DNA from: a virus
Direction: 5' to 3' (one strand)
Virus record (IMG/VR): IMGVR_UViG_3300008952_001755
Location: 7,361-71,360 of that record
Length of the DNA stretch: 64,000 bases
Shown: in pieces, positions 4,375-27,231 of the stretch
Layout: each line of letters starts with the position of its first letter
Position numbering within the stretch: position 1 is the stretch's first letter
Program-made: the position numbers and the translations under genes
The notes under the pieces: generated by a model
What the model saw: only the letters and a program-made list of their open reading frames with translations
Told to the model about the DNA's origin: nothing
Databases searched by the model: none

Positions 4375-5368
4375 GAATCAGTTTCAATCCAGAAAGGAGA
4401 TCTTCTTTATTAATCTTTGTTTTACTTGAGTTAATATAGTAATCAATTAACTCATCATTGAGGGCAGTTGTAAACTCTCTGCCATCAGTTTCAAACTCTT
4501 CTTTGTCATCCAATAAGGGTTTATACTTAACCTCAATAGATCCAACCTCTAGTTTATCACACAGGTCTGCTATGCGGTCTTGATCTTCATCAATTGTATT
4601 GATATTAATTCTTAGTAAAGTAAAGTATGTGCCATTACCCTCATCATTAATCCAATCCAGATTATCCTCTACATTGTCATAGTCTATAACTAAGTGTCTC
4701 GGTCCCCACCTGGAGGGTAACTTATCCAGCCTGTTTTCGTCCAGTACCCCGTAGAAGCAGTCCTTTCCAGCTTCTCCAAAGTTTGTAGAGTAGGGGGTTC
4801 CGAGGACGGAGACTGATCCATTCCTACCTTCTTTGTGAATGTGCCCAAGAATTGTAGGGTTTTTAAAATCGGATATAGACAAGCTAAAATCAGCATCCCC
4901 AGCAGAGTTAAGCACCCCATAATAACCAAAGTGACCGAACACAGTATAACCCTCAGGGGCAGAAGTAAGTTCCTTTTTAATTTTTTGTTCATCTTCATAG
5001 TGTGGGATAAACACCCACTTATTTAGGTTATCAATGTAAGTATGGGTTATTACTTTTATCATGTCACTCTCTAAGAGAGTTAAAGCAGTAACTCCATCAT
5101 CGGACTTGTTTACACTATCATGGTTCCCTCGTAGGATAAAAACCTGTTTTGTCCTGCTCACCTCATCCATCACTTCCTTCAAGGCTAGTAGTACTGCGGG
5201 TCTTGGGTTCCTGTGCATCATAAGGTCGCCCAAAAATATAACCTTAGAACAATTGTTATTATCTCTACAAATTTGGAGTACGGCTTTCTTCTGAGCAGCA
5301 AGCAACCCTACAGGCTTGTCCTCGAAATGCAAGTCTCCAATTACAAGAGTTTTCATACTTCTTACCAT
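4349..5368 (-). CDS. SbcD/Mre11-like nuclease (T4 gp47-like); start possibly at the second Met (MKTLVIGDLH)
   Basis: Metallophosphoesterase motifs GDLH, LGD, GNHD, GHIH; adjacent to the gp46-like gene. Confidence 0.9.
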   Translation of the reverse strand: MVRSMKTLVIGDLHFEDKPVGLLAAQKKAVLQICRDNNNCSKVIFLGDLMMHRNPRPAVLLALKEVMDEVSRTKQVFILRGNHDSVNKSDDGVTALTLLESDMIKVITHTYIDNLNKWVFIPHYEDEQKIKKELTSAPEGYTVFGHFGYYGVLNSAGDADFSLSISDFKNPTILGHIHKEGRNGSVSVLGTPYSTNFGEAGKDCFYGVLDENRLDKLPSRWGPRHLVIDYDNVEDNLDWINDEGNGTYFTLLRININTIDEDQDRIADLCDKLEVGSIEVKYKPLLDDKEEFETDGREFTTALNDELIDYYINSSKTKINKEDLLSGLKLIHENQQDRN

Positions 5369-5562
5369 TTATCTATCGGACACCTTTCAGTCTCCATCTT
5401 AGTTTTATATTTTAATACGCACCCACAAAGAGAACATTTTCCTGAGGAGAAATGCTCACAGAGTTTACAAATTTGCATACGATCTTCAGCCGAGTAAGAT
5501 ACACGGCAACCACCAACGGCCCAGCAGTAAACAGCCTTTATTAATCTAAATAATCTCCTCAT
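5362..5562 (-). CDS. Small Cys-rich (zinc-binding) protein, 66 aa
   Basis: Start trimmed to ATG 5562 to avoid a long thyX overlap; RMQICKLCEH...CSLCGC...CPIDKW pattern. Confidence 0.6.
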   Translation of the reverse strand: MRRLFRLIKAVYCWAVGGCRVSYSAEDRMQICKLCEHFSSGKCSLCGCVLKYKTKMETERCPIDKW

Positions 5563-6235
5563 GATAACATAATGCATCCCAACTAATAGGAAACAATTCA
5601 GACATAATTTTTCCAATAGCCCTGGCGTACTCCTGTGTCTCCCATTGAGTATGCTCTTCTGTCCTAAGTTTATATAGGTGATGCCACCCGAGGAGGGTGC
5701 CTGTAGTAACCGTTGTGGTAAACATAGCTTGAGGAAGAACCATTCTAGCTTGTTCTGGGCAGACACCTAGCTCAAGCATTGTATTATAGGTAGCTGCTGC
5801 CTTACAATAAAGAGCATCTACCTTATCATCTACAAGAATAGCGTCATCATTTGATAAACCCCCTTCTATACTCCCCTGCTTTATGTTGAGGGGTCTCTCC
5901 CGCCACTCGTTAGCCATAGGGTAATAAAAATCTGGGTCAGAATCAATGTACCGTCTTGATACTTCACTCCAAGAGAACCCTACTTGGTGCTTACCTAACT
6001 GACGCAGTACAAAAAGAGGAGCATGGATGCGTAAAGTACATACAGGGTGGCGAAACGGGAGAAAGTGTCCATGTTCTGCCAAGTAGTTGATAAGTTTCCC
6101 ATCTTTATCAGGATCATAGCTCTCATGTTCTTTATCAAAGGAACACCTCGCTGCATTTACTACTAGTAAATCTCCGTCTTCTGTGTGGCTCATCAATTCA
6201 ACTGAACCTTTATATAATATATGTTTTACTTCCAT
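5546..6235 (-). CDS. thyX: Flavin-dependent thymidylate synthase
   Basis: VVNAARCSF, H-x-x-PFRH, RQLGKHQVGFSWSEVSRRY, EQARMVLPQ, HTQWE motifs. Confidence 0.92.
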   Translation of the reverse strand: MEVKHILYKGSVELMSHTEDGDLLVVNAARCSFDKEHESYDPDKDGKLINYLAEHGHFLPFRHPVCTLRIHAPLFVLRQLGKHQVGFSWSEVSRRYIDSDPDFYYPMANEWRERPLNIKQGSIEGGLSNDDAILVDDKVDALYCKAAATYNTMLELGVCPEQARMVLPQAMFTTTVTTGTLLGWHHLYKLRTEEHTQWETQEYARAIGKIMSELFPISWDALCYHEEII

Positions 6236-7317
6236 AATACAGGGACTCCATTTTCAAACTGAACTTCTTTACCATCACCAAAAGACTTGCCAACCTCTGC
6301 GTCAATCGCAAGAGGCACATCAAAATGGATATTAAAAATCTCCTTGATCTTAGGGTAATTAACCATTTCATCGTAGAGGATAGTGAGTGTATCTTTCACC
6401 TCTTCTTGAGGACAAACAATCTCAATCGAGTCATGCACCGTAGCTACTGGCTTGGCTTGGAGTCCTGCCTCCTTGAAGCGTTCCGAAGCTCCTAGGAGAG
6501 AGGTCAGGAGTATGTCAGAGGCTGCACTCTGGATAGTAAAGTTTAGCCCCTGTCTTAGTGCCCTGTTAACGACCGAACGATCCCTGCTACCCACATCAGG
6601 TAGGTTACGCTTGCGCCCAAAAATAGTATAAGCATACCCATTATTTTTAATGAAGTTATTAACAAATTCCATGTAGGAAAAGATTCCAGGATAAACATTT
6701 TCATAGTCTCTAATAATTTTCTCTGCTCGGCGCATAGGGATGCCCACAGTCTCACTCAGATTAAAAGCTCCTCCACCATAGACGATTAGGAACGAAACCG
6801 TCTTAGCAATCTGGCGTTCCTGCTTACTAATTTTTTCTTTATTGAACAGCAACCTTGCGGTGTAGGTATGGAGATCTGCCCCTTGGTTGAATGCCAGTTG
6901 CATATTACCTTCCTTCGCAATATGAGATAGCACCCTCAGTTCCATGGCTGCGTAATCCGCAGCAATAAATGCCCAGTCCCCAGGGGCTCTGAAAAGGCTC
7001 CTAATGTTGTTCTTAGTTTCACGGGGTAAAGTATGGAAAGATACTCCCATCGCTTTCTGAGCGTTGTACGCAGCGCATGAGAGCCTTCCTGTGGAAGTAC
7101 CGTCAAAGCGGAAGTCCACGAAGACTTTATTCTTCTCATTATACGCAATAGCATTCTTAGTTCCCTCAATGTAAGTCTTGGTGAGCTTCTCAGACTTACG
7201 GAGATCCAACAGACCTTTCAGGAATTTCTTAGCTTCTTGAAGTTCTTCTGTTGTCTTGGAAGCAACAACAGACTTGCTTATCTTTTTCCCTTCGTCTCTA
7301 TGTTGCCACTTAGACAC
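6226..7317 (-). CDS. polA: Family A DNA polymerase, fragment 3 (distal thumb, palm, fingers)
   Basis: GTSTGRLS, motif A ADYAAMELRVL, motif B RQIAKTVSFLIVYG, NFTIQSAASDI, motif C TVHDSI; GTG start with GGAG about 10 nt upstream. Confidence 0.9.
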   Translation of the reverse strand: MSKWQHRDEGKKISKSVVASKTTEELQEAKKFLKGLLDLRKSEKLTKTYIEGTKNAIAYNEKNKVFVDFRFDGTSTGRLSCAAYNAQKAMGVSFHTLPRETKNNIRSLFRAPGDWAFIAADYAAMELRVLSHIAKEGNMQLAFNQGADLHTYTARLLFNKEKISKQERQIAKTVSFLIVYGGGAFNLSETVGIPMRRAEKIIRDYENVYPGIFSYMEFVNNFIKNNGYAYTIFGRKRNLPDVGSRDRSVVNRALRQGLNFTIQSAASDILLTSLLGASERFKEAGLQAKPVATVHDSIEIVCPQEEVKDTLTILYDEMVNYPKIKEIFNIHFDVPLAIDAEVGKSFGDGKEVQFENGVPVLWK

Positions 7318-7789
7318 GCTTCTCTAGCTCCGCATCAATATGTTCAAGAAGTAGTTTAAGTGTGGGGGCAGACACAGATGGTTTACCTTTGGCTGTTTTG
7401 TCAGGGGGATATAATCCCATAGCATTTTCTCTGGTGTAAAGAATTTCAATAAGGTCGTTGTTAGAAGAGAGGTTGTCTGTTTTTGTTACCCCTTTACAGG
7501 TGTATAGGAAATCCTCCTCGTCCATGTTAGTAGTTCGTAACTGCTTCCCAACGGAATCAAGGGTATCCATGTCAACATCCAACCCATTATACTCCATCTC
7601 TGCGAAAGTTTCAAGAGAGGGCATAACAACACCCTCTAGGAGCTTCATTACGGGCTCGTCCCCTAGCCTCTCCATGATGAGATCGAACAGCTTGAGGGTG
7701 AAGTAGGTATCCATCGCGTTGCCCTCACAGCAATCGGATAGATCCATGTTAGCCCAATCGAATTTTTTAGGATTGTCTATGGTCAGCAT
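7310..7789 (-). CDS. Family A DNA polymerase, fragment 2 (ExoIII region and proximal thumb)
   Basis: NAMDTYFTLKLF (ExoIII-like), MEYNGLDVD, NLSSNNDLIEILY, KTAKGKPSV correspond to PolA MExxGxxxD, NxxSxxQLxxxLF, KTxxGxxST. Confidence 0.82.
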   Translation of the reverse strand: MLTIDNPKKFDWANMDLSDCCEGNAMDTYFTLKLFDLIMERLGDEPVMKLLEGVVMPSLETFAEMEYNGLDVDMDTLDSVGKQLRTTNMDEEDFLYTCKGVTKTDNLSSNNDLIEILYTRENAMGLYPPDKTAKGKPSVSAPTLKLLLEHIDAELEKRV

Positions 7790-7822
7790 AGCTATATAAT
7801 AGAACCACTAGGGGTGATTTTT

Positions 7823-8806
7823 ATGAACGAATACGAAAGAATAGGAGAATCTATCTGGGATACCTATAGAAGTATTGGTGCTGTTTTAACTGAAGCTAGA
7901 CGCATGACTAGAAAAGAACTTAAAGATGTAGCTACTGAAGTTCATGGGACTACCGAAGAACCAAGTAAAATTGCTGCTGGTGCGGGGTATACTCCTAAGA
8001 GAACAAAAAAAGAAACTAGACGAGCGGAAAAGCGTGGAGCCACTCCACTATCCAAGGAAGATGTTGCTGGAATGTCCTCAGCAGACCTAGCACAAAATAT
8101 TAAACCTGGAATTAGAGGCCAAGCTAAACTCGTAGGAAGAGCTATAAAACAATGGCCGAAGAGAGGATACCTACAAAATATTCCTAAGATGGTAAGGACA
8201 ATGAAAAGAGATCCTGGTGAATTCCCAGCGGCAGTTTCCTTTTCAGCGGATCAAAGAACAGAAGGACAACCTGGGCACAAAACTAAGGCTAGACCTACTG
8301 CCGTTACGGGAAGAACTAGATTGGCTGTAGCGAGTACGACAGGTAAGGAAGCTCATGGTATAACTCTGCCATCAGAACGCTACGCAAGAAGCGCAGAAAG
8401 GCATAAAGACTGGGTTGATTCTGGGGGGAAGGCAAGAAGAGAAGCACAACTCGCAGCTAAAGGTAAAAAGTTAAGGGGACAAGACCCTAGAAATGAATCA
8501 GTTTTGAATACCTATAGAAGTATTGGTTATCTTATAGCTGAGATTGCTAGAGTGCCCAACCCCGAAGAACCTAAAGGGAACCCCAGAGTTTGGTCTGATG
8601 AGGAAAGAGAAGCGAGAAAGAAAAAGAGAGCGAAAAGGAAAAGTTTTGATGATGTTGTGAAACCCCCAAAACCCCCCGCAGCAAACCAACAGGTTCCTGG
8701 TATGTTTAATGTAGCTGGCGGTGTTAAGAAGTTTAAGGATTGGATTAAAAGAAAACTGTCTGGGAATAGCACCGAAGATGAACCTAAAGATCCTCCAACT
8801 CGTTAG
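7823..8806 (+). CDS. Basic (Lys/Arg-rich) protein, putative internal head protein; central part may be a degenerate ParB-like domain
   Basis: ATG 7823 follows AGGGGTG; two TYRSIGxxL/IxE motifs; VTGRTRL weakly resembles ParB xGxxRL; antisense to and between polymerase fragments. Confidence 0.6.
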   Translation: MNEYERIGESIWDTYRSIGAVLTEARRMTRKELKDVATEVHGTTEEPSKIAAGAGYTPKRTKKETRRAEKRGATPLSKEDVAGMSSADLAQNIKPGIRGQAKLVGRAIKQWPKRGYLQNIPKMVRTMKRDPGEFPAAVSFSADQRTEGQPGHKTKARPTAVTGRTRLAVASTTGKEAHGITLPSERYARSAERHKDWVDSGGKARREAQLAAKGKKLRGQDPRNESVLNTYRSIGYLIAEIARVPNPEEPKGNPRVWSDEEREARKKKRAKRKSFDDVVKPPKPPAANQQVPGMFNVAGGVKKFKDWIKRKLSGNSTEDEPKDPPTR

Positions 8807-9806
8807 CGAAGTAAAGTTTAGTAAGATCCATCAAACTCTTAGGCATATTCTCATCCAGTAAGTGATGCATGATCTTAGTGTCCCACACATTCTTAGTGTA
8901 AATCCCATAATTAATCAAGAACTTTAGGTCAAACTTAGCGTTGTGGAATACCTTCTTGTTCTTTGGGTTCTCTAAGATGCGGCGAAGAATAACCCAGACC
9001 TCTGCGTAGTGGGGTTCCCCCTTCCTAAACGGACTGTCCTTATGATCCAGGGGGATAACCCAGGTCTGATCCTTTGAAGTAAAGGAGATCGTCATAATAC
9101 TATCCTTCAAGAAGTTCAGCCCTGTAGTCTCTGTGTCGATTGCTATTGTCTCATACGAATTTTTTAGCTTTAGACCTAATTCCTTAACCTCTTCGATCTT
9201 AGTGAGGACCTTGTAGGTAAAGTTCCCGTCAACTGTTTTGCCAAGTACATATTTTTCATACGCATTTTGAATGTCTGTTCTGAACAAGGCTGTGTGACGA
9301 GGCTCTTTAATACAGGAGTAAGGATGAAAAAGAGGCACAACGATGCAGCGATGCCCATTAGCAGTAGTGAATTCATAAGATTTCCCTCTCTTATTTGTGA
9401 TGCCACTCTTCTTGATTAGCATCTTCATAGCTAGATTTCCACAAGGGAATACCAGCTTGGGTTTTACTTTGTCTATAGTCGCTTCTAGATGGTTGCGACA
9501 CAGGCCCATATTTGTTGGAGTCATGTCTGCTTCTCTAACCGAAGGACACTTAACAGACGCAGCCATCTTATAGTTCTCCTTATAGCAATCATCAATTAAA
9601 GCTATCTCAACTTTTGAGAAAGGAGATATAGTTCCAAGTCTATAGTTAAGTGAATCAGAGAGAAACAAAACAGGAGCTTCTTCAAGATCCTCATAGTCCA
9701 TGACTGAATGACAGGGTTTACTTTTCTCCAGAACGGAACACCCCTCACATAAAGGATTATCCCCATGGGTTTTGTGTCCTGCGTACAATTTATCAAGATC
9801 GAACAT
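8784..9806 (-). CDS. Family A DNA polymerase, fragment 1 (family-4 UDG-like domain plus ExoI/ExoII of the 3'-5' exonuclease)
   Basis: CEGC, VKCP, LCRNHL, KPKLVFPCGNLA, LFHP (UDG4 fold); IAIDTETTGL (ExoI), FHNAKFDL (ExoII), WDTKIMHHLLDEN. Confidence 0.85.
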   Translation of the reverse strand: MFDLDKLYAGHKTHGDNPLCEGCSVLEKSKPCHSVMDYEDLEEAPVLFLSDSLNYRLGTISPFSKVEIALIDDCYKENYKMAASVKCPSVREADMTPTNMGLCRNHLEATIDKVKPKLVFPCGNLAMKMLIKKSGITNKRGKSYEFTTANGHRCIVVPLFHPYSCIKEPRHTALFRTDIQNAYEKYVLGKTVDGNFTYKVLTKIEEVKELGLKLKNSYETIAIDTETTGLNFLKDSIMTISFTSKDQTWVIPLDHKDSPFRKGEPHYAEVWVILRRILENPKNKKVFHNAKFDLKFLINYGIYTKNVWDTKIMHHLLDENMPKSLMDLTKLYFANELEDL

Positions 9807-9808
9807 GG

Positions 9809-9817
9809 CTATAATAG
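9809..9817. promoter_or_regulatory. Near-palindromic CTATAATAG element in a 14-bp divergent gap; candidate bidirectional promoter
   Basis: Lies between ATG 9806 (-) and ATG 9821 (+); same element at 10941-10949 and 63940-63948. Confidence 0.5.
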
Positions 9818-9820
9818 GGT

Positions 9821-10168
9821 ATGAAAAATCATTACATAGATAACAAGAGATTTGAAGAGATCATCCTATTATACCAGCAAGACCCAGAAACTTACGAGGA
9901 TGATCTAGTTTCTTTATTTGATCTATTGATCACCAACATAATTGAATCTTTTAGATTCAAGGTAGATCCTGATGATGCGAAGCAAGAATGTTTCGCCTTA
10001 GTTCTCAAGACTGTTAAAAACTTTAAGCCTAGGAAGGGAACAGCGTTCAACTATTTTACAACCATCGTAATCAATAATCTAAAATTGATGTACACTAGGG
10101 ACAAAAAATACAGGCAAAAAATCGACAACTATATCGAAAGAAAGAAGGATGATTTTATACAACCCTGA
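9821..10168 (+). CDS. Late-transcription sigma factor (T4 gp55-like), short
   Basis: HYIDNKRF N-terminus; DAKQEC...KNFKP...AFNYFTTI resembles the gp55 region 2 AFxYFT motif. Confidence 0.75.
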   Translation: MKNHYIDNKRFEEIILLYQQDPETYEDDLVSLFDLLITNIIESFRFKVDPDDAKQECFALVLKTVKNFKPRKGTAFNYFTTIVINNLKLMYTRDKKYRQKIDNYIERKKDDFIQP

Positions 10169-10475
10169 GATTTTTCATCACCATCGACAAATAATCCTCT
10201 GAATGTATACCCTTCTTAGCTAGGCGTACAAGGTGAGGTAGCTTCGTTGTGTTATATATAACAAAGCTGTGTGGCATACGGAAGCTGTCTACAATGTAGA
10301 CGGGTTGGCCTCGATCAACATTTTTATACTTTTCTTTGAGCTTGTCTATCAAAGTATTAGAATGCTTGTCCCATAAAGAAACAAACAAGATGTTAATGGG
10401 AGTCCTATCTTTCTTGTAGGATCTAATGATCTTATTCAGATCATTCTCTTTTCTAAGGAAGTGTAATTTATACAT
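10155..10475 (-). CDS. Hypothetical protein, possible Cys-less thioredoxin-like fold
   Basis: INILFVSLWDKHS ... VYIVDS ... TKLPHLV follows thioredoxin spacing without CxxC. Confidence 0.4.
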   Translation of the reverse strand: MYKLHFLRKENDLNKIIRSYKKDRTPINILFVSLWDKHSNTLIDKLKEKYKNVDRGQPVYIVDSFRMPHSFVIYNTTKLPHLVRLAKKGIHSEDYLSMVMKNLRVV

Positions 10476-10936
10476 TAGCCTTCGTATTTCTTAGGTTCTT
10501 TGGATTTAATAACATCCTCGTTAAGAGTCTTCTTAATAGAACCTCGGTCCATAAAATTTTCAGGAGTAGTTGTGGGTGCAGCCCCAGAAAGATCATGTTC
10601 AAGAACTGCCGTCTCGGCTAACTTAACTTCACCGTCATCATTCTCAATCACGGTGATCCCTGACGCAGCCAGTTCCTCTTTGTTCTCTGAGGCGTACTTC
10701 TGTACCATGTCTGATAGCTGCTTGTTAAGTGCTTCGATGCCTGTCACGAAGACAGTTTTGATAAAGTCTGCGTCAGTAATCTCCTGAGGCTTACACACAT
10801 CAGCAAAATTCTTGAAGGCAATAGCCTCATCCTTCGAAAGTTTAATTTGTAGTTTCATACGATCCTTACTCCGCTCATCTATACGAATTCTCCATTGACT
10901 GACATCCAGCTTAATACTTGTTTGCTCGGGATCCAT
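10475..10936 (-). CDS. Hypothetical protein
   Basis: 153-aa ORF preceded by TATAAT-N6-ATG; stop overlaps the next start. Confidence 0.6.
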   Translation of the reverse strand: MDPEQTSIKLDVSQWRIRIDERSKDRMKLQIKLSKDEAIAFKNFADVCKPQEITDADFIKTVFVTGIEALNKQLSDMVQKYASENKEELAASGITVIENDDGEVKLAETAVLEHDLSGAAPTTTPENFMDRGSIKKTLNEDVIKSKEPKKYEG

Positions 10937-10940
10937 CTAA

Positions 10941-10949
10941 CTATTATAG
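10941..10949. promoter_or_regulatory. CTATTATAG/CTATAATAG element at a divergent junction
   Basis: Minus strand reads TATAAT-AGTTAG-ATG(10936); plus strand reads element, AGGTG, then ATG 10965. Confidence 0.5.
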
Positions 10950-10964
10950 TGTAGGTGATAAATT

Positions 10965-14013: not shown

Positions 14014-14037
14014 ATTATATAATAGCCAAGTTAATCA

Positions 14038-19668: not shown

Positions 19669-20661
19669 TCACCCATCAGGACCTGCCCTTTTCTTTCTAT
19701 CATCTGCATCCAGTGCTGCCTGAGTTTTTTTATCTAATTCAGGGAAAATACTATCCGGCTCCCTGCTCCTGCCTTTCTTCTTACCAGACTTCGCAGCCGC
19801 TGCTCTTTCCCTTCTTGCTTTCATTCTAGCATTAAGATGCACTTGGACCATGTGTTGAGCTTGGGGGTTAGTAGACCCAGGCTTTACTTGAAGCTTCTTT
19901 TCCATCCTTTTCTTAGCTTTTTTTGCGCCCTTCCTCTTGACTGGATCTTTTATCGCTTTAGAGGATCTTTTTGCTCCTCCTGATGAACGAGCTATTGGAT
20001 GAGCAAATCCTGTTGGATCGCTAGTTCCTTTTGCCCTCGGATCGGCTTCATGGGCCTCCATTAATTTTTTAATATATCTATTCATAATTTTACCTTCTCC
20101 CTGTAATTCCTTTTTCTTTTGCTGTATTAACTCCTCGGCCCTTCTTTCACCAGAAGCATAGCTACCCCCAACTTCATCCTCTTCCTCTGCTTGGTTCCCT
20201 TGTGCTTTTTGTGCTATTCTATCTTTAGCCATTTGGATTGCTTTTCTCTTAGCCATCTTACCACCAGTCTTAAGAGCCCCTCCAACTGCTTTAGCACCAG
20301 CCTTCGCAGCCCCCACAGCCCCTTTACCAACACCAGCCGCAATCCTAGCTGCTACCCCACCTGCTGCTGCCGCTGCTGCCCCTAGAGGGGCAAGAATGGC
20401 TATCTCATCAACTCTATAACCCATAGCTTCGGCTAAATATAAGCCTAGTCTTTTGTACTCGGTAGATGAGTTAACTTTCGTAACCGTTTTAATAGGTCGT
20501 TGTCTTTTTCTTTTATCAGCCACCTCTTCAGGGCTAACAGGTTTACTAGGGGATCCAGCCCGTACTCTCTGGGCTGTAATTTCTCTCGTTAATTCTTCAT
20601 CAGATTTAGTTTTGCGGGGTCTTCCCCGTTCGCTTCCGTATGTTCCTGGACCTTTAGGCAT
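19669..20661 (-). CDS. Basic protein, putative internal head protein
   Basis: Lys/Arg/Ala-rich; STEYKRLGLYLAE and RYIKKLMEA motifs. Confidence 0.55.
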   Translation of the reverse strand: MPKGPGTYGSERGRPRKTKSDEELTREITAQRVRAGSPSKPVSPEEVADKRKRQRPIKTVTKVNSSTEYKRLGLYLAEAMGYRVDEIAILAPLGAAAAAAGGVAARIAAGVGKGAVGAAKAGAKAVGGALKTGGKMAKRKAIQMAKDRIAQKAQGNQAEEEDEVGGSYASGERRAEELIQQKKKELQGEGKIMNRYIKKLMEAHEADPRAKGTSDPTGFAHPIARSSGGAKRSSKAIKDPVKRKGAKKAKKRMEKKLQVKPGSTNPQAQHMVQVHLNARMKARRERAAAAKSGKKKGRSREPDSIFPELDKKTQAALDADDRKKRAGPDG

Positions 20662-24263: not shown

Positions 24264-26774
24264 TTAGAATTCCTTACCTGATTGTACCAGATCAACTTTA
24301 ACTTTCCTCTGCCTCTCTTTCTCCGCAGTAGGGTTCCTGTGGGGTCTCTTGAACTTCTTATGTCCAGGTAAGAAAGATTGCTCTCGCTTCCAGTCCGCGT
24401 CTGCCGTAGCCAGTTCCTGAGGACCCATACTCTTGTATGTTCTCCTGATCTCATTAAGACCTAACATCTCAGCGAGTATAGAACCGATTTGAGCATACTC
24501 AGTACTTGCTCGTTGTTGTGTCGCTAAATTAAGAGCTTTCTTCTTCTTTCGGGGAAGACCTTGAGCCTCTGGAGAACTCCAGTGGGCTTGTCTACTTTTC
24601 TGCCTCTGAATCTGAGAGGATCTAGCTCCTGCCGTACTACCTTTCTTTCTTAGGTCCCTGAGTGCTGCTACATCTGTTGCTCTTTGAGCGATATTCTTAG
24701 TACTTCTTTTGGTAGGAGCGAACCTTGTAGGCTTTGCTTGCCGAAGGGCTCGGGATCGTCCTTCAGCGGCTTCCTGACCACCCCATCGGTCAACAGCAGC
24801 CTGATTCCTGGCTGCTAGATTCTTTGAACTAATAGGTCCTTTATCAAGCGCACCACCAAATTCCCTTTTAGCTTTATGTTCCGCTGGTGTTTTACCATCT
24901 TTCCCAGATTGAGGCTTATCTTGGGGAATATCGGAAGCAGGAGGAGTCTTAGGAGTCGTAGTATCCTTGGCTGTCTCGGGAGTCGTAGTATCCTTGGCTG
25001 TCCCGCGCCTCTTCTTTATAAAGCTTCTAACAGCCCGACCAGCCCGACCAGTAAGCTGACCAGCCTTACGCCCTAACTCAGGAAGTTTCTCGGCAGATTT
25101 CACGGCCAAATCACGGGCTTGACCATGCGCCCCCCTCACTACCCCAGCCCCACTTCTGAGCGTCAAGCCTTGGCTTGCGACACTTCCTTCTGGAGCCGCA
25201 GCCCTCTCTTTTGCCCGTAACGCTTGTATGTTAGTTTGTTTATGTTGAACATCACCAGTTTTAGTAGCCTGTTTTGCGCCTGCTCTATCCGCTTTACCCT
25301 GTGTTTTTACATCTCCGAGGGCTGTAATCCTATCGGTGGTTACACCGCTTTTAGCTTGGATTTTAGAAACCTTTGCATCAGCTTTGGCTTTGGTTTTAGA
25401 AGCCGCTGCCTCACCTTTAGCTTGGGCTGCTGGCAATTTTTTAGCTTGGGTTCTCGCATCTTTTGCCAGACTTAGCCCTTGTCTTCGCTCCTGGGAATGC
25501 CGAACAGCACGGGCAATAAAACCTTCTCTTCCCTGACCTCCAGCACCTCCACCTTGGCTCCTATTTAGGGCTCTTGCTTGTCTTTTTGCTGCCTTTGCTG
25601 TTTCCTCTGCGGCTGATTCTTTCTCTTGAGTAGCGAAATCTTCCATAAGAAGCTTACCTATTTGAAGGTAGGAAGTTCCAGCAGCAATACGAGTAGGTTT
25701 AACATCGTCTTCCCTTTCTGTTTTAGGGAGAGCCCGAAGGACTACAAGTTTTTCTTTTTCACTACCTGCCTCTTTTTTTTTAGCCTTGTCCTCTTTTTTA
25801 GCTTTTTGTCTTTTCTCTGCGCGTTTCTGCGTAAGTGCTCTAGTCCTTACAGGTCTTGTTGCCCTTCGAATCCTTCTTAAAGAAGCCTTCATGCTATCAG
25901 CCTGTTCCTGCTCCTTTGATTTTTTTAATTGAGCAGCGAAGTCTTCTCCAAGAAGAGCTTCTGCAATTCGATGCCAAATACCATCAGCTTTCACTAACTC
26001 AAAAGCGTCAGATACTGCTTGTGCTTGTGGTCGTATAAGAGGGTACTTCTTCCTCTTCTGGTTTAAGTCCGCAATCTGATCTTTAAGAGTTTTTGGTTCC
26101 TCTGATTCCTCTGATTTCTTTGGTTTCTTTGGTTTCTTTGGTTTCTTATTTTGCTTGGCCTCTTCAATCCAAGGCTGATAAGCATCACGCATCTTAGACT
26201 CAAGCATGGTAACAAAATTGCTTTCTTTCTTAAGCTTAGATTGAGATTCACGAACAAACTTCGACTGAGTAGACTCAGCTAGAGCAGGATATGCTCCCCT
26301 TGTTGATGGATCAGCAACGAGATCGAAGGTTACAAGACGGAAATCCTCGTTCACAATCTTGTCTCCATTGTGGTCCTCAGAAAGAGTACCCATTCCTCTA
26401 GAAGAAATACCAACCTTAACTCCACCTTCCACTAAGGCTTTAGCAGTAAGCCCTGCGGGGGTTTTAAGGATTTCAGCCTCACCAATAAGCTCATTACCTT
26501 TCATTTCAAGTTTAGTGACTAGGTGAGAAGCATTGGCTAATTTAACCGTGTCGTTCTGGGGGTGATCAAGCTCACCACATAATCTTCGTTCTGCGATAAG
26601 AGGCTTTACTTTTTCAAGTTGGCCCTCCAGGACTGCTGTAGGGTAAATTCTTCCGTTGTTATTCTTCTCATTACAACGACCGAAGATTCCACGAATTTTC
26701 ATGGGGCCATCAGCTTTTCCTTCATTTATAACTTGAAGTTGTTCAATGATAAAAGTATCTTGTAGTAATTGCAT
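24264..26774 (-). CDS. Prohead protease (gp21-like) with ~620-aa basic C-terminal extension
   Basis: KNNNGRIYP, GELDHP, SHLVTKL, TPAG, GISSRGMG, TFDLVADPS; start set at MQLLQD (26774) after GGGAG. Confidence 0.88.
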   Translation of the reverse strand: MQLLQDTFIIEQLQVINEGKADGPMKIRGIFGRCNEKNNNGRIYPTAVLEGQLEKVKPLIAERRLCGELDHPQNDTVKLANASHLVTKLEMKGNELIGEAEILKTPAGLTAKALVEGGVKVGISSRGMGTLSEDHNGDKIVNEDFRLVTFDLVADPSTRGAYPALAESTQSKFVRESQSKLKKESNFVTMLESKMRDAYQPWIEEAKQNKKPKKPKKPKKSEESEEPKTLKDQIADLNQKRKKYPLIRPQAQAVSDAFELVKADGIWHRIAEALLGEDFAAQLKKSKEQEQADSMKASLRRIRRATRPVRTRALTQKRAEKRQKAKKEDKAKKKEAGSEKEKLVVLRALPKTEREDDVKPTRIAAGTSYLQIGKLLMEDFATQEKESAAEETAKAAKRQARALNRSQGGGAGGQGREGFIARAVRHSQERRQGLSLAKDARTQAKKLPAAQAKGEAAASKTKAKADAKVSKIQAKSGVTTDRITALGDVKTQGKADRAGAKQATKTGDVQHKQTNIQALRAKERAAAPEGSVASQGLTLRSGAGVVRGAHGQARDLAVKSAEKLPELGRKAGQLTGRAGRAVRSFIKKRRGTAKDTTTPETAKDTTTPKTPPASDIPQDKPQSGKDGKTPAEHKAKREFGGALDKGPISSKNLAARNQAAVDRWGGQEAAEGRSRALRQAKPTRFAPTKRSTKNIAQRATDVAALRDLRKKGSTAGARSSQIQRQKSRQAHWSSPEAQGLPRKKKKALNLATQQRASTEYAQIGSILAEMLGLNEIRRTYKSMGPQELATADADWKREQSFLPGHKKFKRPHRNPTAEKERQRKVKVDLVQSGKEF
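24952..25002. repeat. 24-nt direct repeat (period 27) encoding TAKDTTTP twice
   Basis: ggagtcgtagtatccttggctgtc at 24952-24975 and 24979-25002. Confidence 0.85.
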
Positions 26775-26775
26775 A

Positions 26776-27231
26776 TTATTTATCTCCCTTGTCTGCTCTG
26801 CCATCCTTGCCACCGATTCCCCTTTTAGCTTTGATAGTTCTACTTCCGTATTTTTGAGCTAATTTATCAGAGCCCCTTCCGTATCGTAGTAAAGTTCTAG
26901 AAGCGTGTTTCTTAACACTGCTCCACTTTGAGGAAGGAGTAGAACTGCCAGGGGTAAACCCTTTTGCAATCTTACCTCTTCCACTTTTCTTTCCCCACTT
27001 TCCTTTAGAAATTACATACAATCTACCAGCAGCTTTAGTTGAAAAAATCTGACCGTAGGATCCGTCTGTCAAGGCAGACTTTATACTATCGTAAGTTTTT
27101 ACTCTACCTTTGAAAGCCTTCTTCTTATCATCCTTGGTAGCGGATCTAGAGGTGTAAGCTTCCCTACCCTCAGTAGAGCCTCTTCCGCTGGTCCCTTCGG
27201 TAAGATAATAAATTGCCTCTGTCAGTTTCAT
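26776..27231 (-). CDS. Small, highly basic protein (putative core/DNA-binding)
   Basis: K/R/G/S-rich; N-terminal LTEA/LTEG sites; directly upstream of the protease. Confidence 0.6.
   Translation of the reverse strand: MKLTEAIYYLTEGTSGRGSTEGREAYTSRSATKDDKKKAFKGRVKTYDSIKSALTDGSYGQIFSTKAAGRLYVISKGKWGKKSGRGKIAKGFTPGSSTPSSKWSSVKKHASRTLLRYGRGSDKLAQKYGSRTIKAKRGIGGKDGRADKGDK

Follow-up and report, generated by a model that had tools for sequence, protein, structure and literature searches.

A family A DNA polymerase encoded by three separately started genes in a clade of uncultured marine myoviruses

Family A DNA polymerases (PolAs) are textbook single-chain enzymes. The locus considered here, in which the homologue of one PolA is distributed over three minus-strand genes, lies in a stretch of 64,000 nucleotides (hereafter the window; positions 7,361 to 71,360 of the IMG/VR virus record IMGVR_UViG_3300008952_001755) that is part of a 71,360-bp viral contig with a CheckV completeness of 64%. 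We name the three pieces F1, F2 and F3 in the order in which they encode the polymerase, the borders between them junction 1 and junction 2, and the antisense gene that occupies junction 1 INS. The nearest described system is the PolA of the S-SBP1-like T7-like cyanophages, split into an exonuclease and a polymerase gene and presented as the first such case among PolAs (Czernecki et al. 2023, NAR, PMC10201439). According to that account the split arises by a frameshift and a new start codon, and the pieces are predicted to reassemble with their new termini exposed to solvent. Both there and here a family A gene underwent fission into adjacent, overlapping genes with no recoding; the cyanophage gene, as described, is interrupted once, where the exonuclease domain gives way to the polymerase domain, whereas the locus reported here has two, one between ExoII and ExoIII and one in the thumb, in a PolA that is fused to a uracil-DNA glycosylase (UDG)-like domain, belongs to a myovirus clade and harbours cargo genes in its junctions (PMC10201439).

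Two further splits concern family A. In the OM43 phages MEP401 and MEP402, PolA occupies two open reading frames (ORFs) with a small ORF of unknown function between them, and the split is described as kept in most related metagenomic genomes; the break falls inside the polymerase domain, ORF13 encoding the exonuclease and the N-terminal polymerase part and ORF15 the C-terminal part, and the phages are 43-kb podoviruses with two pieces only, whereas three pieces of a myovirus enzyme are found here (PMC10580990). MEP401 and MEP402 were not among the 18 records matched by F2 in a tblastn search of the phage collection. An uncultured cyanophage lineage has also been reported with PolA in two ORFs (bioRxiv 10.1101/325100). 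UDG-fused PolAs are on record for the N4-like cluster 17, SPO1, SP-10 and SP-15/YerA41, where, as in F1, an N-terminal family-4 UDG-like domain precedes the exonuclease; those enzymes are, as described, single chains (PMC10201439, PMC13697223). Outside family A, the PhiKZ polymerase is made from two genes and cryo-EM shows a stable polymerase/exonuclease complex (bioRxiv 2026, PMC13648687); unlike the present enzyme it belongs to family B, with a single break within a palm insertion and, in the preprint's account, genes that are not adjacent. The S-SBP1-like PolA and the PhiKZ polymerase thus give a precedent for the reassembly of split polymerases. In the literature searched, supplementary tables being outside its scope, no description was found of a three-gene PolA or of a break within the exonuclease domain.

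Three collinear pieces of one polymerase

The preliminary description, made from the letters and ORFs of the window, had read three minus-strand ORFs collinearly as one PolA; the coordinates, strands and end sequences that it gave were recovered (Table 1), and Pfam, PHROG and Klenow alignments all agree with the collinear reading. Pfam places UDG at F1 residues 75-169 (28.8 bits, cut-off 24.3), DNA_pol_A_exo1 on F1 (2.6e-22) over just positions 2-129 of a profile of 173, and DNA_pol_A on F3 (8e-77; 259.2 bits, cut-off 34.3) over positions 52-380 of 381; F2 has no Pfam match. The PHROG family phrog_17 ('DNA polymerase') is covered by the pieces in order, F1 at 525-785, F2 at 794-931 and F3 at 924-1239. 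A profile of 32 F2-like proteins aligns with residues 159-294 of the Klenow chain (E 4e-21), and with a chain offset of 323, checked against the Klenow positions Y497 and D501, F2 spans about 475 to about 629 in Pol I numbering, that is, ExoIII and the proximal thumb. The alignment of F1 with Klenow reaches about residue 450, and F1 ends some 20 residues beyond. Taken together, the two alignments therefore set junction 1 between ExoII and ExoIII and junction 2 in the thumb, where both breaks had been proposed; the ORF map likewise agrees that a plus-strand gene fills the first, and an 8-nt overlap with a change of frame marks the second, read CGT GTC TAA in F2 and GTG TCT AAG in F3.

The contents ascribed to F1 and F3 hold. 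F1, judged by profile matches, carries an N-terminal family-4 UDG-like domain ahead of its exonuclease domain: C20, C23, C87 and C103 are invariant, and solved family-4 UDGs match the F1 profile (4zbx at E 3e-12). This domain has the HP(Y)S motif and reads FLSDS where family-4 UDGs have a GEAPG-type motif, and its activity is uncertain. The exonuclease carboxylates are all invariant, D224 and E226 of ExoI and D293 of ExoII being in F1 and D27 in F2. In F3, residues D121 and Y122 (FIAADYAAMELR), R168, K172 and Y180 (RQIAKTVSFLIVYGGG) and H295 and D296 (TVHDS) are the same in 12 of 12 aligned sequences; these are the residues of motifs A (Asp), B (Arg, Lys, Tyr) and C (His-Asp). F3 also carries TGRLSCAAYNAQKAMGVSFHTLPR in the place of the GRLSSxxPNLQNIP of Klenow-type enzymes, KTVSFLIVYGGG as motif B and VHDS instead of VHDE as motif C, odd residues that are invariant in the clade. 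The assignment of ExoIII and proximal thumb to F2 stands as far as its position on Klenow goes and needs amending at one residue: ExoIII reads GNAMD, with Asp27 kept and Gly23 at the tyrosine position, aligned to Klenow Y497.

Within the contig PF00476 matches once, in F3, and neither another PolA nor a PolB or Pol III alpha was found in any of five partial genomes (the window contig, 64% complete, and four relatives of 39-67%). The three-gene PolA is this phage's only recognisable DNA polymerase. The usual PolA state, exonuclease and polymerase domains on one chain, does not hold at this locus, which is a variant whose homology stands.

Table 1. Coordinates in the window of the polymerase pieces, their junctions and associated features.
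Feature	Position	Strand	Remarks
F1, polymerase piece 1	8784..9806	-	340 aa; family-4-UDG-like domain + ExoI + ExoII; ends ...LYFANELEDL*
F2, polymerase piece 2	7310..7789	-	159 aa; ExoIII + proximal thumb; starts MLTIDNPKKFDW
F3, polymerase piece 3	6226..7317	-	363 aa, GTG start; distal thumb, palm, fingers, motifs A/B/C
Junction 2	7310..7317	-	8-nt overlap (GTGTCTAA), F3 start on F2 stop
INS, antisense cargo in junction 1	7823..8806	+	327 aa from ATG; longest ORF 7814-8806, 330 aa from GTG; two tag copies
Divergent spacer, F2 ATG (7789) / INS ATG (7823)	7790..7822		TATA box CTATATAATAG at 7792-7802
Divergent spacer, F1 ATG / sigma-like gene ATG	9807..9820		14 nt; same-type box CTATAATAG at 9809-9817
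Small sigma-70 region-2-like protein	9821..10168	+	115 aa; F1-syntenic in relatives; context, not part of the polymerase
Head-module ORF	19669-20661		330 aa; one tag copy
Prohead protease	24264-26813		two tag copies

The neighbouring genes of the window (tail sheath, major head protein, prohead protease) indicate a tailed myovirus, and a full nucleotide-metabolism and replication set (including RNR, SbcCD-like proteins and ThyX) is also nearby. The ThyX gene (5546-6235) begins 10 nt before the F3 stop (6226-6235); with the overlap of F2 and F3, this makes F2, F3 and ThyX a chain of overlapping genes. In the phage collection a nucleotide search returned a sole match of 74 nt in ThyX, and the best identity of F3 to any phage there is about 33%.

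Conserved breaks and the expression of the pieces

Whether the breaks are real was addressed in contigs of other runs and in relatives. The former bridge junction 2 and the F2/INS border with 0 indels: record 10 of X2 spans 6768-8186 with 0 differences, and record 17 of X5 (7066-7723) and record 4 of X13 (7219-7386) both come from other studies. The relatives form two overlapping sets, one of 29 viral contigs fetched with an F2 search (set 1; 61-91% identity) and one of 80 distinct viral contigs from an F3-alignment search (set 2; 69-93% F3 identity), the latter evaluable at junction 1 in 70 contigs and at junction 2 in 77; contigs of the clade reach about 130 kb. In set 1 and the window F1, F2 and F3 always lie in separate frames or segments, in set 2 none of 70 first junctions and none of 77 second junctions is fused, and the three pieces are syntenic wherever this can be evaluated. 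Median pairwise ratios of non-synonymous to synonymous substitution rates (dN/dS) are 0.068 for F1 (53 pairs), 0.069 for F2 (163 pairs) and 0.055 for F3 (106 pairs), with maxima of 0.15, 0.29 and 0.08, values that are rough because dS is near saturation (medians 1.6-2.0) and because many pairs were dropped when those with dS between 0.05 and 3 were kept; they point to strong purifying selection on all three pieces. For a metagenomic viral contig that is 64% complete, faulty assembly or sequencing, or the decay of a pseudogene, might come to mind, but 80 other contigs from many samples show these breaks, the runs of other studies cross them without indels, dN/dS is about 0.06 and start and stop codons are conserved, which makes this explanation hardly credible. 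The conservation of both breakpoints, which the preliminary description had named as a point to check, was thus found, and the contrary picture that it had outlined, of intact relatives beside fragments under relaxed selection, was seen nowhere in the clade sets. The split is real, conserved and under selection.

The split form is also widespread. A search with F2 among 1.84 billion representative proteins gave 173 matches at E<=0.001, and the best 150 of these were classified by size and by coverage of ExoIII. Stand-alone proteins of at most 200 aa that cover the motif make up 102 of the best 150, and 80 of them begin MLT, the N-terminus conserved across the F2 family; 10 are two-piece forms (F1 | F2-F3), proteins of 280-563 aa that begin MLT or MLS and run into the polymerase domain, 14 are matches inside longer unsplit proteins, and 24, mostly fragments, do not cover the motif. 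One locus with the same neighbourhood (L032) shows the two-piece form, F1 ending ...KVNDL* and being followed by a 92-aa sense ORF and a 563-aa F2-F3. A word-indexed search added 522 clusters of F2 size, on metagenomic contigs of up to 116 kb.

How the pieces are expressed can be read from their junctions. At junction 1 the stop of F1 overlaps the start of F2 as TAATG in 13 of 27 loci of set 1 and 33 of 70 of set 2, and there the last F1 codons encode a Shine-Dalgarno (SD)-like GGAGGA or GGAGAA. The commonest form of junction 2 is that of the window, GTGnnTAA/TAG with the GTG 5 nt before the F2 stop (55/77); ATGA is found in 16/77, a 23-nt overlap in 4/77 and a gap or insert in 2/77. With GGAG about 10 nt upstream of the F3 GTG, junction 2 looks like a termination-reinitiation arrangement. 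The two gap or insert cases are a 21-nt gap beside a partial F2 match (L064) and an insert of 585-588 nt (L029/L110), which in L029 (588 nt) encodes a DUF6445 protein. In L064 (4090-4501) the F2 match covers residues 1-88 only, with a gap of 21-132 nt before F3, and junction 1 there holds 1565 nt with antisense ORFs that carry the tag described below.

These features bear on the alternative, also raised in the preliminary description, that the pieces are joined into one polypeptide, whether through a programmed +1 frameshift at junction 2, ribosomal bypassing, or an intron or trans-splicing at junction 1. F3 does overlap F2 by 8 nt in the +1 frame, and many relatives end F2 with CGT GGG TAA G, where a +1 slip like that at the RF2 site is possible in principle. 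However, the last sense codon of F2 varies (GTC in the window; GGG, GAG, GGC or GGT elsewhere) and the F3 frame is open for just 6 nt upstream of the GTG, so there is no conserved frameshift site; junction 2 moreover takes the ATGA and 23-nt-overlap forms or holds a gene of 585-588 nt. At junction 1, 37 of 70 contigs have unrelated genes, most of them antisense, over 0.15-2.3 kb, while 33 have a stop/start overlap. Rfam, at permissive thresholds, gave 0 matches over 5500-10500, no Hint/intein domain was matched by Pfam, and neither F1 nor F2 is long enough to accommodate an intein half as well, the end of the one and the beginning of the other lying within PolA-homologous sequence; the lack of intein or intron signs noted at the outset is thereby upheld. 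An intron-interrupted polymerase gene of the SPO1 type was rejected on the same Rfam result and because relatives free of an insert still switch frame at the junction, after a stop codon and with a new ATG. We consider joining at the RNA or ribosome level very improbable.

The start codons of F2 and F3, which had been judged plausible in their own right, are conserved in relatives within the stop/start overlaps, and each piece has its own start. The junctions fit three separately initiated, translationally coupled genes: in the basic design a start codon shares letters with, or lies across, the stop of the gene before it, as TAATG at junction 1 and as GTGnnTAA or ATGA at junction 2, and this overlap would couple the translation of the pieces.

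Cargo and candidate promoters at junction 1

As true intergenic sites, both junctions have come to receive accessory genes in some relatives. Inserts of 151-2287 nt fill junction 1 in 14/27 loci of set 1 and 37/70 of set 2, and the cargo is diverse: one group of antisense basic proteins, INS included, bears a W-(N/D)-T-Y-(R/K)-x-x-(G/S/A)-x-x-(L/I/V)-x-E tag; others are antisense lipoprotein-like proteins of 161-181 aa, a sense 2OG-Fe(II) oxygenase (L029) or small sense ORFs (L025, L032 and others), and one locus (L028) has more than 2.1 kb of antisense genes ahead of F2. L029 carries its oxygenase (5366-5923) in junction 1 and the DUF6445 gene (6452-7078) in junction 2, both on the polymerase strand. 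T4-like nrdA and gp43 are known as 'genes in pieces', interrupted by free-standing homing endonucleases. The likeness is that an essential phage gene consists of parts that are translated on their own and have a foreign gene lying between; 'fractured genes' with split inteins are a related theme (Dassa et al. 2009, PMC2677866). Unlike either, the inserts tested here show no homing-endonuclease or intein domain (of 15 insert ORFs searched with Pfam none matched a homing endonuclease, 13 having no match, one matching 2OG-FeII_Oxy_3 and one DUF6445), and unlike 'genes in pieces' half of the relatives are free of an insert and yet split.

INS itself starts at the ATG at 7823, as its homologues indicate, and shares 23 nt with the 3' end of F1. 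It encodes a basic, predicted disordered protein without a Pfam match, in which the tag W-x-T-Y-R-x-I-G-x-x-L-x-E occurs twice. No match was obtained with INS by tblastn in the phage collection, nor any in a search for related loci; the protein database, and the motif-level similarity of other inserts, were the sole sources of relatives. Common to five metagenomic homologues (67-93% identity) is a central block, some 200 aa long, with the tag at its borders, and by this conservation INS is a real gene. The ESM Atlas gave no usable match, the structure rows (TM <0.35, on a model with pLDDT 0.46) being meaningless.

The tag in the form Y-x-x-[ILMV]-[GSA]-x-x-[LIVM]-x-E has 5 matches in the 38,232 ORF residues, in three proteins (INS, the head-module ORF and the prohead protease of Table 1), both protease copies being in its long basic C-terminal extension. 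The tag may be a protease cleavage or capsid-targeting signal. In T4, internal proteins have an N-terminal capsid-targeting sequence, and the prohead protease cuts after (L/I)-x-E. By this analogy we would most readily see in INS, at somewhat less than even odds, a capsid-targeted and processed internal protein.

The cargo changes even between close relatives. The nearest by F3, L004 and L005 (93% identical), have no insert, and in other runs the 3' part of INS (8541-8781) differs and F1 and the 5' part of INS are kept: X5 has 213 other letters there, and X6 has two skips. X6 also has a loose end at 7842 that encodes another variant of the tag. INS is hypervariable between strains, and turnover at junction 1 looks fast; repeated gain and loss of inserts is suggested, the F3 tree, with 2 of 18 inner branches well supported, being too weak for counting events. 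The preliminary description had placed an antisense gene inside the proofreading domain as part of the picture. Such a gene is present in the window, but it is not conserved, being absent from 33 of 70 contigs and replaced by unrelated genes in others, and from this comparison it is an interchangeable passenger, not part of the enzyme or of a conserved design.

An antisense insert separates F2 from the translation of F1, and it is worth looking at what lies in the spacer ahead of F2. The CTATATAATAG box stands 3 nt before the F2 ATG, while the plus strand at 7773-7800 has a sigma-70-like TTGTCT, 16 nt and TATAAT, followed by AGGGGTGA before the INS ATG. TAT(A/G)TAG-NN precedes the F2 ATG in 31 of 31 inserts whose longest ORF is antisense, in 0 of 6 sense-type inserts and at 0 of 33 overlap junctions; the sense-type inserts keep a stop/ATG overlap with F2. 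Upstream of F1, which diverges from the sigma-70 region-2-like gene across a spacer of about 14 nt, 49 of 52 related loci have a TAT[A/T]ATAG box no more than 20 nt from the ATG. CTATWATAG is not enriched across the window (3 found against 1.16 expected, 11 of 100 shuffles reaching 3), nor is CTATATAATAG with one mismatch (3 found against 2.96 expected), and the case for the box consequently rests on its position in relatives. Boxes of the TAT(A/T)ATAG type were also seen 2-5 nt before the ATG of four genes that lack an SD (F1, F2 and the ORFs from 10936 and 14013); they are located in the window at 9807-9820, 10937-10964, 14014-14026 and 7790-7822, and likewise in divergent spacers of 14-33 nt.

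The TAT(A/T)ATAG box may be a compact two-way promoter of leaderless type. We infer that the antisense cassettes would bring such a two-way promoter with them, restoring transcription of F2 and F3 with a very short leader or none, so that the TATA-box spacer of the insert probably re-drives F2 and F3.

Reassembly, proofreading and significance

The explanation that we favour, and hold to be very probably right, is that two gene fissions have divided the only recognisable PolA of this phage into three conserved genes whose chains reassemble non-covalently. In this scheme a UDG-fused family A replicative polymerase would have been cut into F1, F2 and F3, each translated from its own start codon, and the three products would come together into the normal PolA fold, with a proofreading site that takes three carboxylates from F1 and one from F2. 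This is close to the heterotrimeric PolA with an exonuclease site completed in trans that the preliminary description had put forward; unfused junctions, purifying selection and separate starts fit it, the assembly itself being inferred, while the other possibility offered there, a joining by an RNA-level or recoding event, is disfavoured by the empty Rfam search, the lack of a conserved slippery site and the varied forms of the junctions. A complex prediction (alignments of F1 185-340, F2 and F3, with F2 as the partner) gave no answer either way, and the control that keeps F1 also scored high; because its pieces resemble solved PolAs, a split gene would be likely to pass such a test anyway.

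The residue at the ExoIII tyrosine position leads to a different reading, in which the pieces are functional and do not make up a canonical proofreading PolA: F2 and F3 could form an exonuclease-deficient polymerase and F1 a separate UDG-like or DNA-binding factor, or the composite exonuclease could be inactive or re-purposed. Among the best 150 matches, 101 of 102 stand-alone F2 proteins and 10 of 10 F2-F3 fusions have Gly at the position of Klenow Y497, whereas in unsplit relatives it is Tyr in 13 of 14 and Gly in 0 of 14. In 37 of 70 contigs other genes stand between F1 and F2, so that their expression can uncouple. On the other side, none of the four exonuclease carboxylates varies; ExoIII is missing from F1, as ExoI and ExoII are from F2, and conservation of the carboxylates makes sense only with a rebuilt site. 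F1 is, besides, as strongly constrained as F3, and the pieces stay syntenic. We hold a non-canonical arrangement to be unlikely. The glycine could just mark one clade; it is invariant over F2 sequences down to 28% identity, and its retention across such divergent sequences suggests constraint. Residues Y332 and F333 in the F1 tail, imaginable counterparts of Klenow F473 or substitutes for the missing tyrosine, are invariant as well, the Klenow alignment stopping at F1 residue 318-320, short of this tail.

Several points weigh against the favoured reassembly into a proofreading PolA. With glycine in place of tyrosine at ExoIII in the split forms, normal proofreading chemistry is not assured. 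The F2 of the window has no SD and is separated from F1 by the antisense gene of about 1 kb, so that coupled 1:1 synthesis with F1 is lost there. To these are added the roughness of the dN/dS estimates given above and the fact that a second polymerase elsewhere in the incomplete genome is conceivable.

Beyond the reassembled PolA, one may go further and suppose that the break in the exonuclease domain is not neutral. It would make proofreading and UDG a dissociable subunit with a site completed in trans and the ExoIII Tyr-to-Gly change fixed (111 of 112 proteins split at junction 1 against 0 of 14 unsplit); the supply of F1, which half of the clade would transcribe apart from F2-F3, could then tune fidelity or the handling of uracil, and junction 1 would be a hot spot at which promoter-bearing antisense cassettes are swapped, among them capsid-targeted, protease-processed internal proteins such as INS. 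Taken as a whole, we regard this joint proposal as doubtful.

As it stands, the only recognisable polymerase of a large and widespread clade of uncultured marine myoviruses is spread over three genes. What appears to be new relative to the published two-gene splits, as far as the accounts consulted go, is the number of pieces, the cut between ExoII and ExoIII and the use of the junctions as cargo sites. Annotators and surveys that use polA as a marker are hereby warned that 'fragments' of about 160 aa and 340 aa are real genes. The two junctions offer natural split sites for PolA engineering, and the enzyme provides a test case for proofreading as a separable subunit and for proofreading without the ExoIII tyrosine. 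More generally, the locus illustrates how, through fission, an essential gene can become a landing site for cargo.

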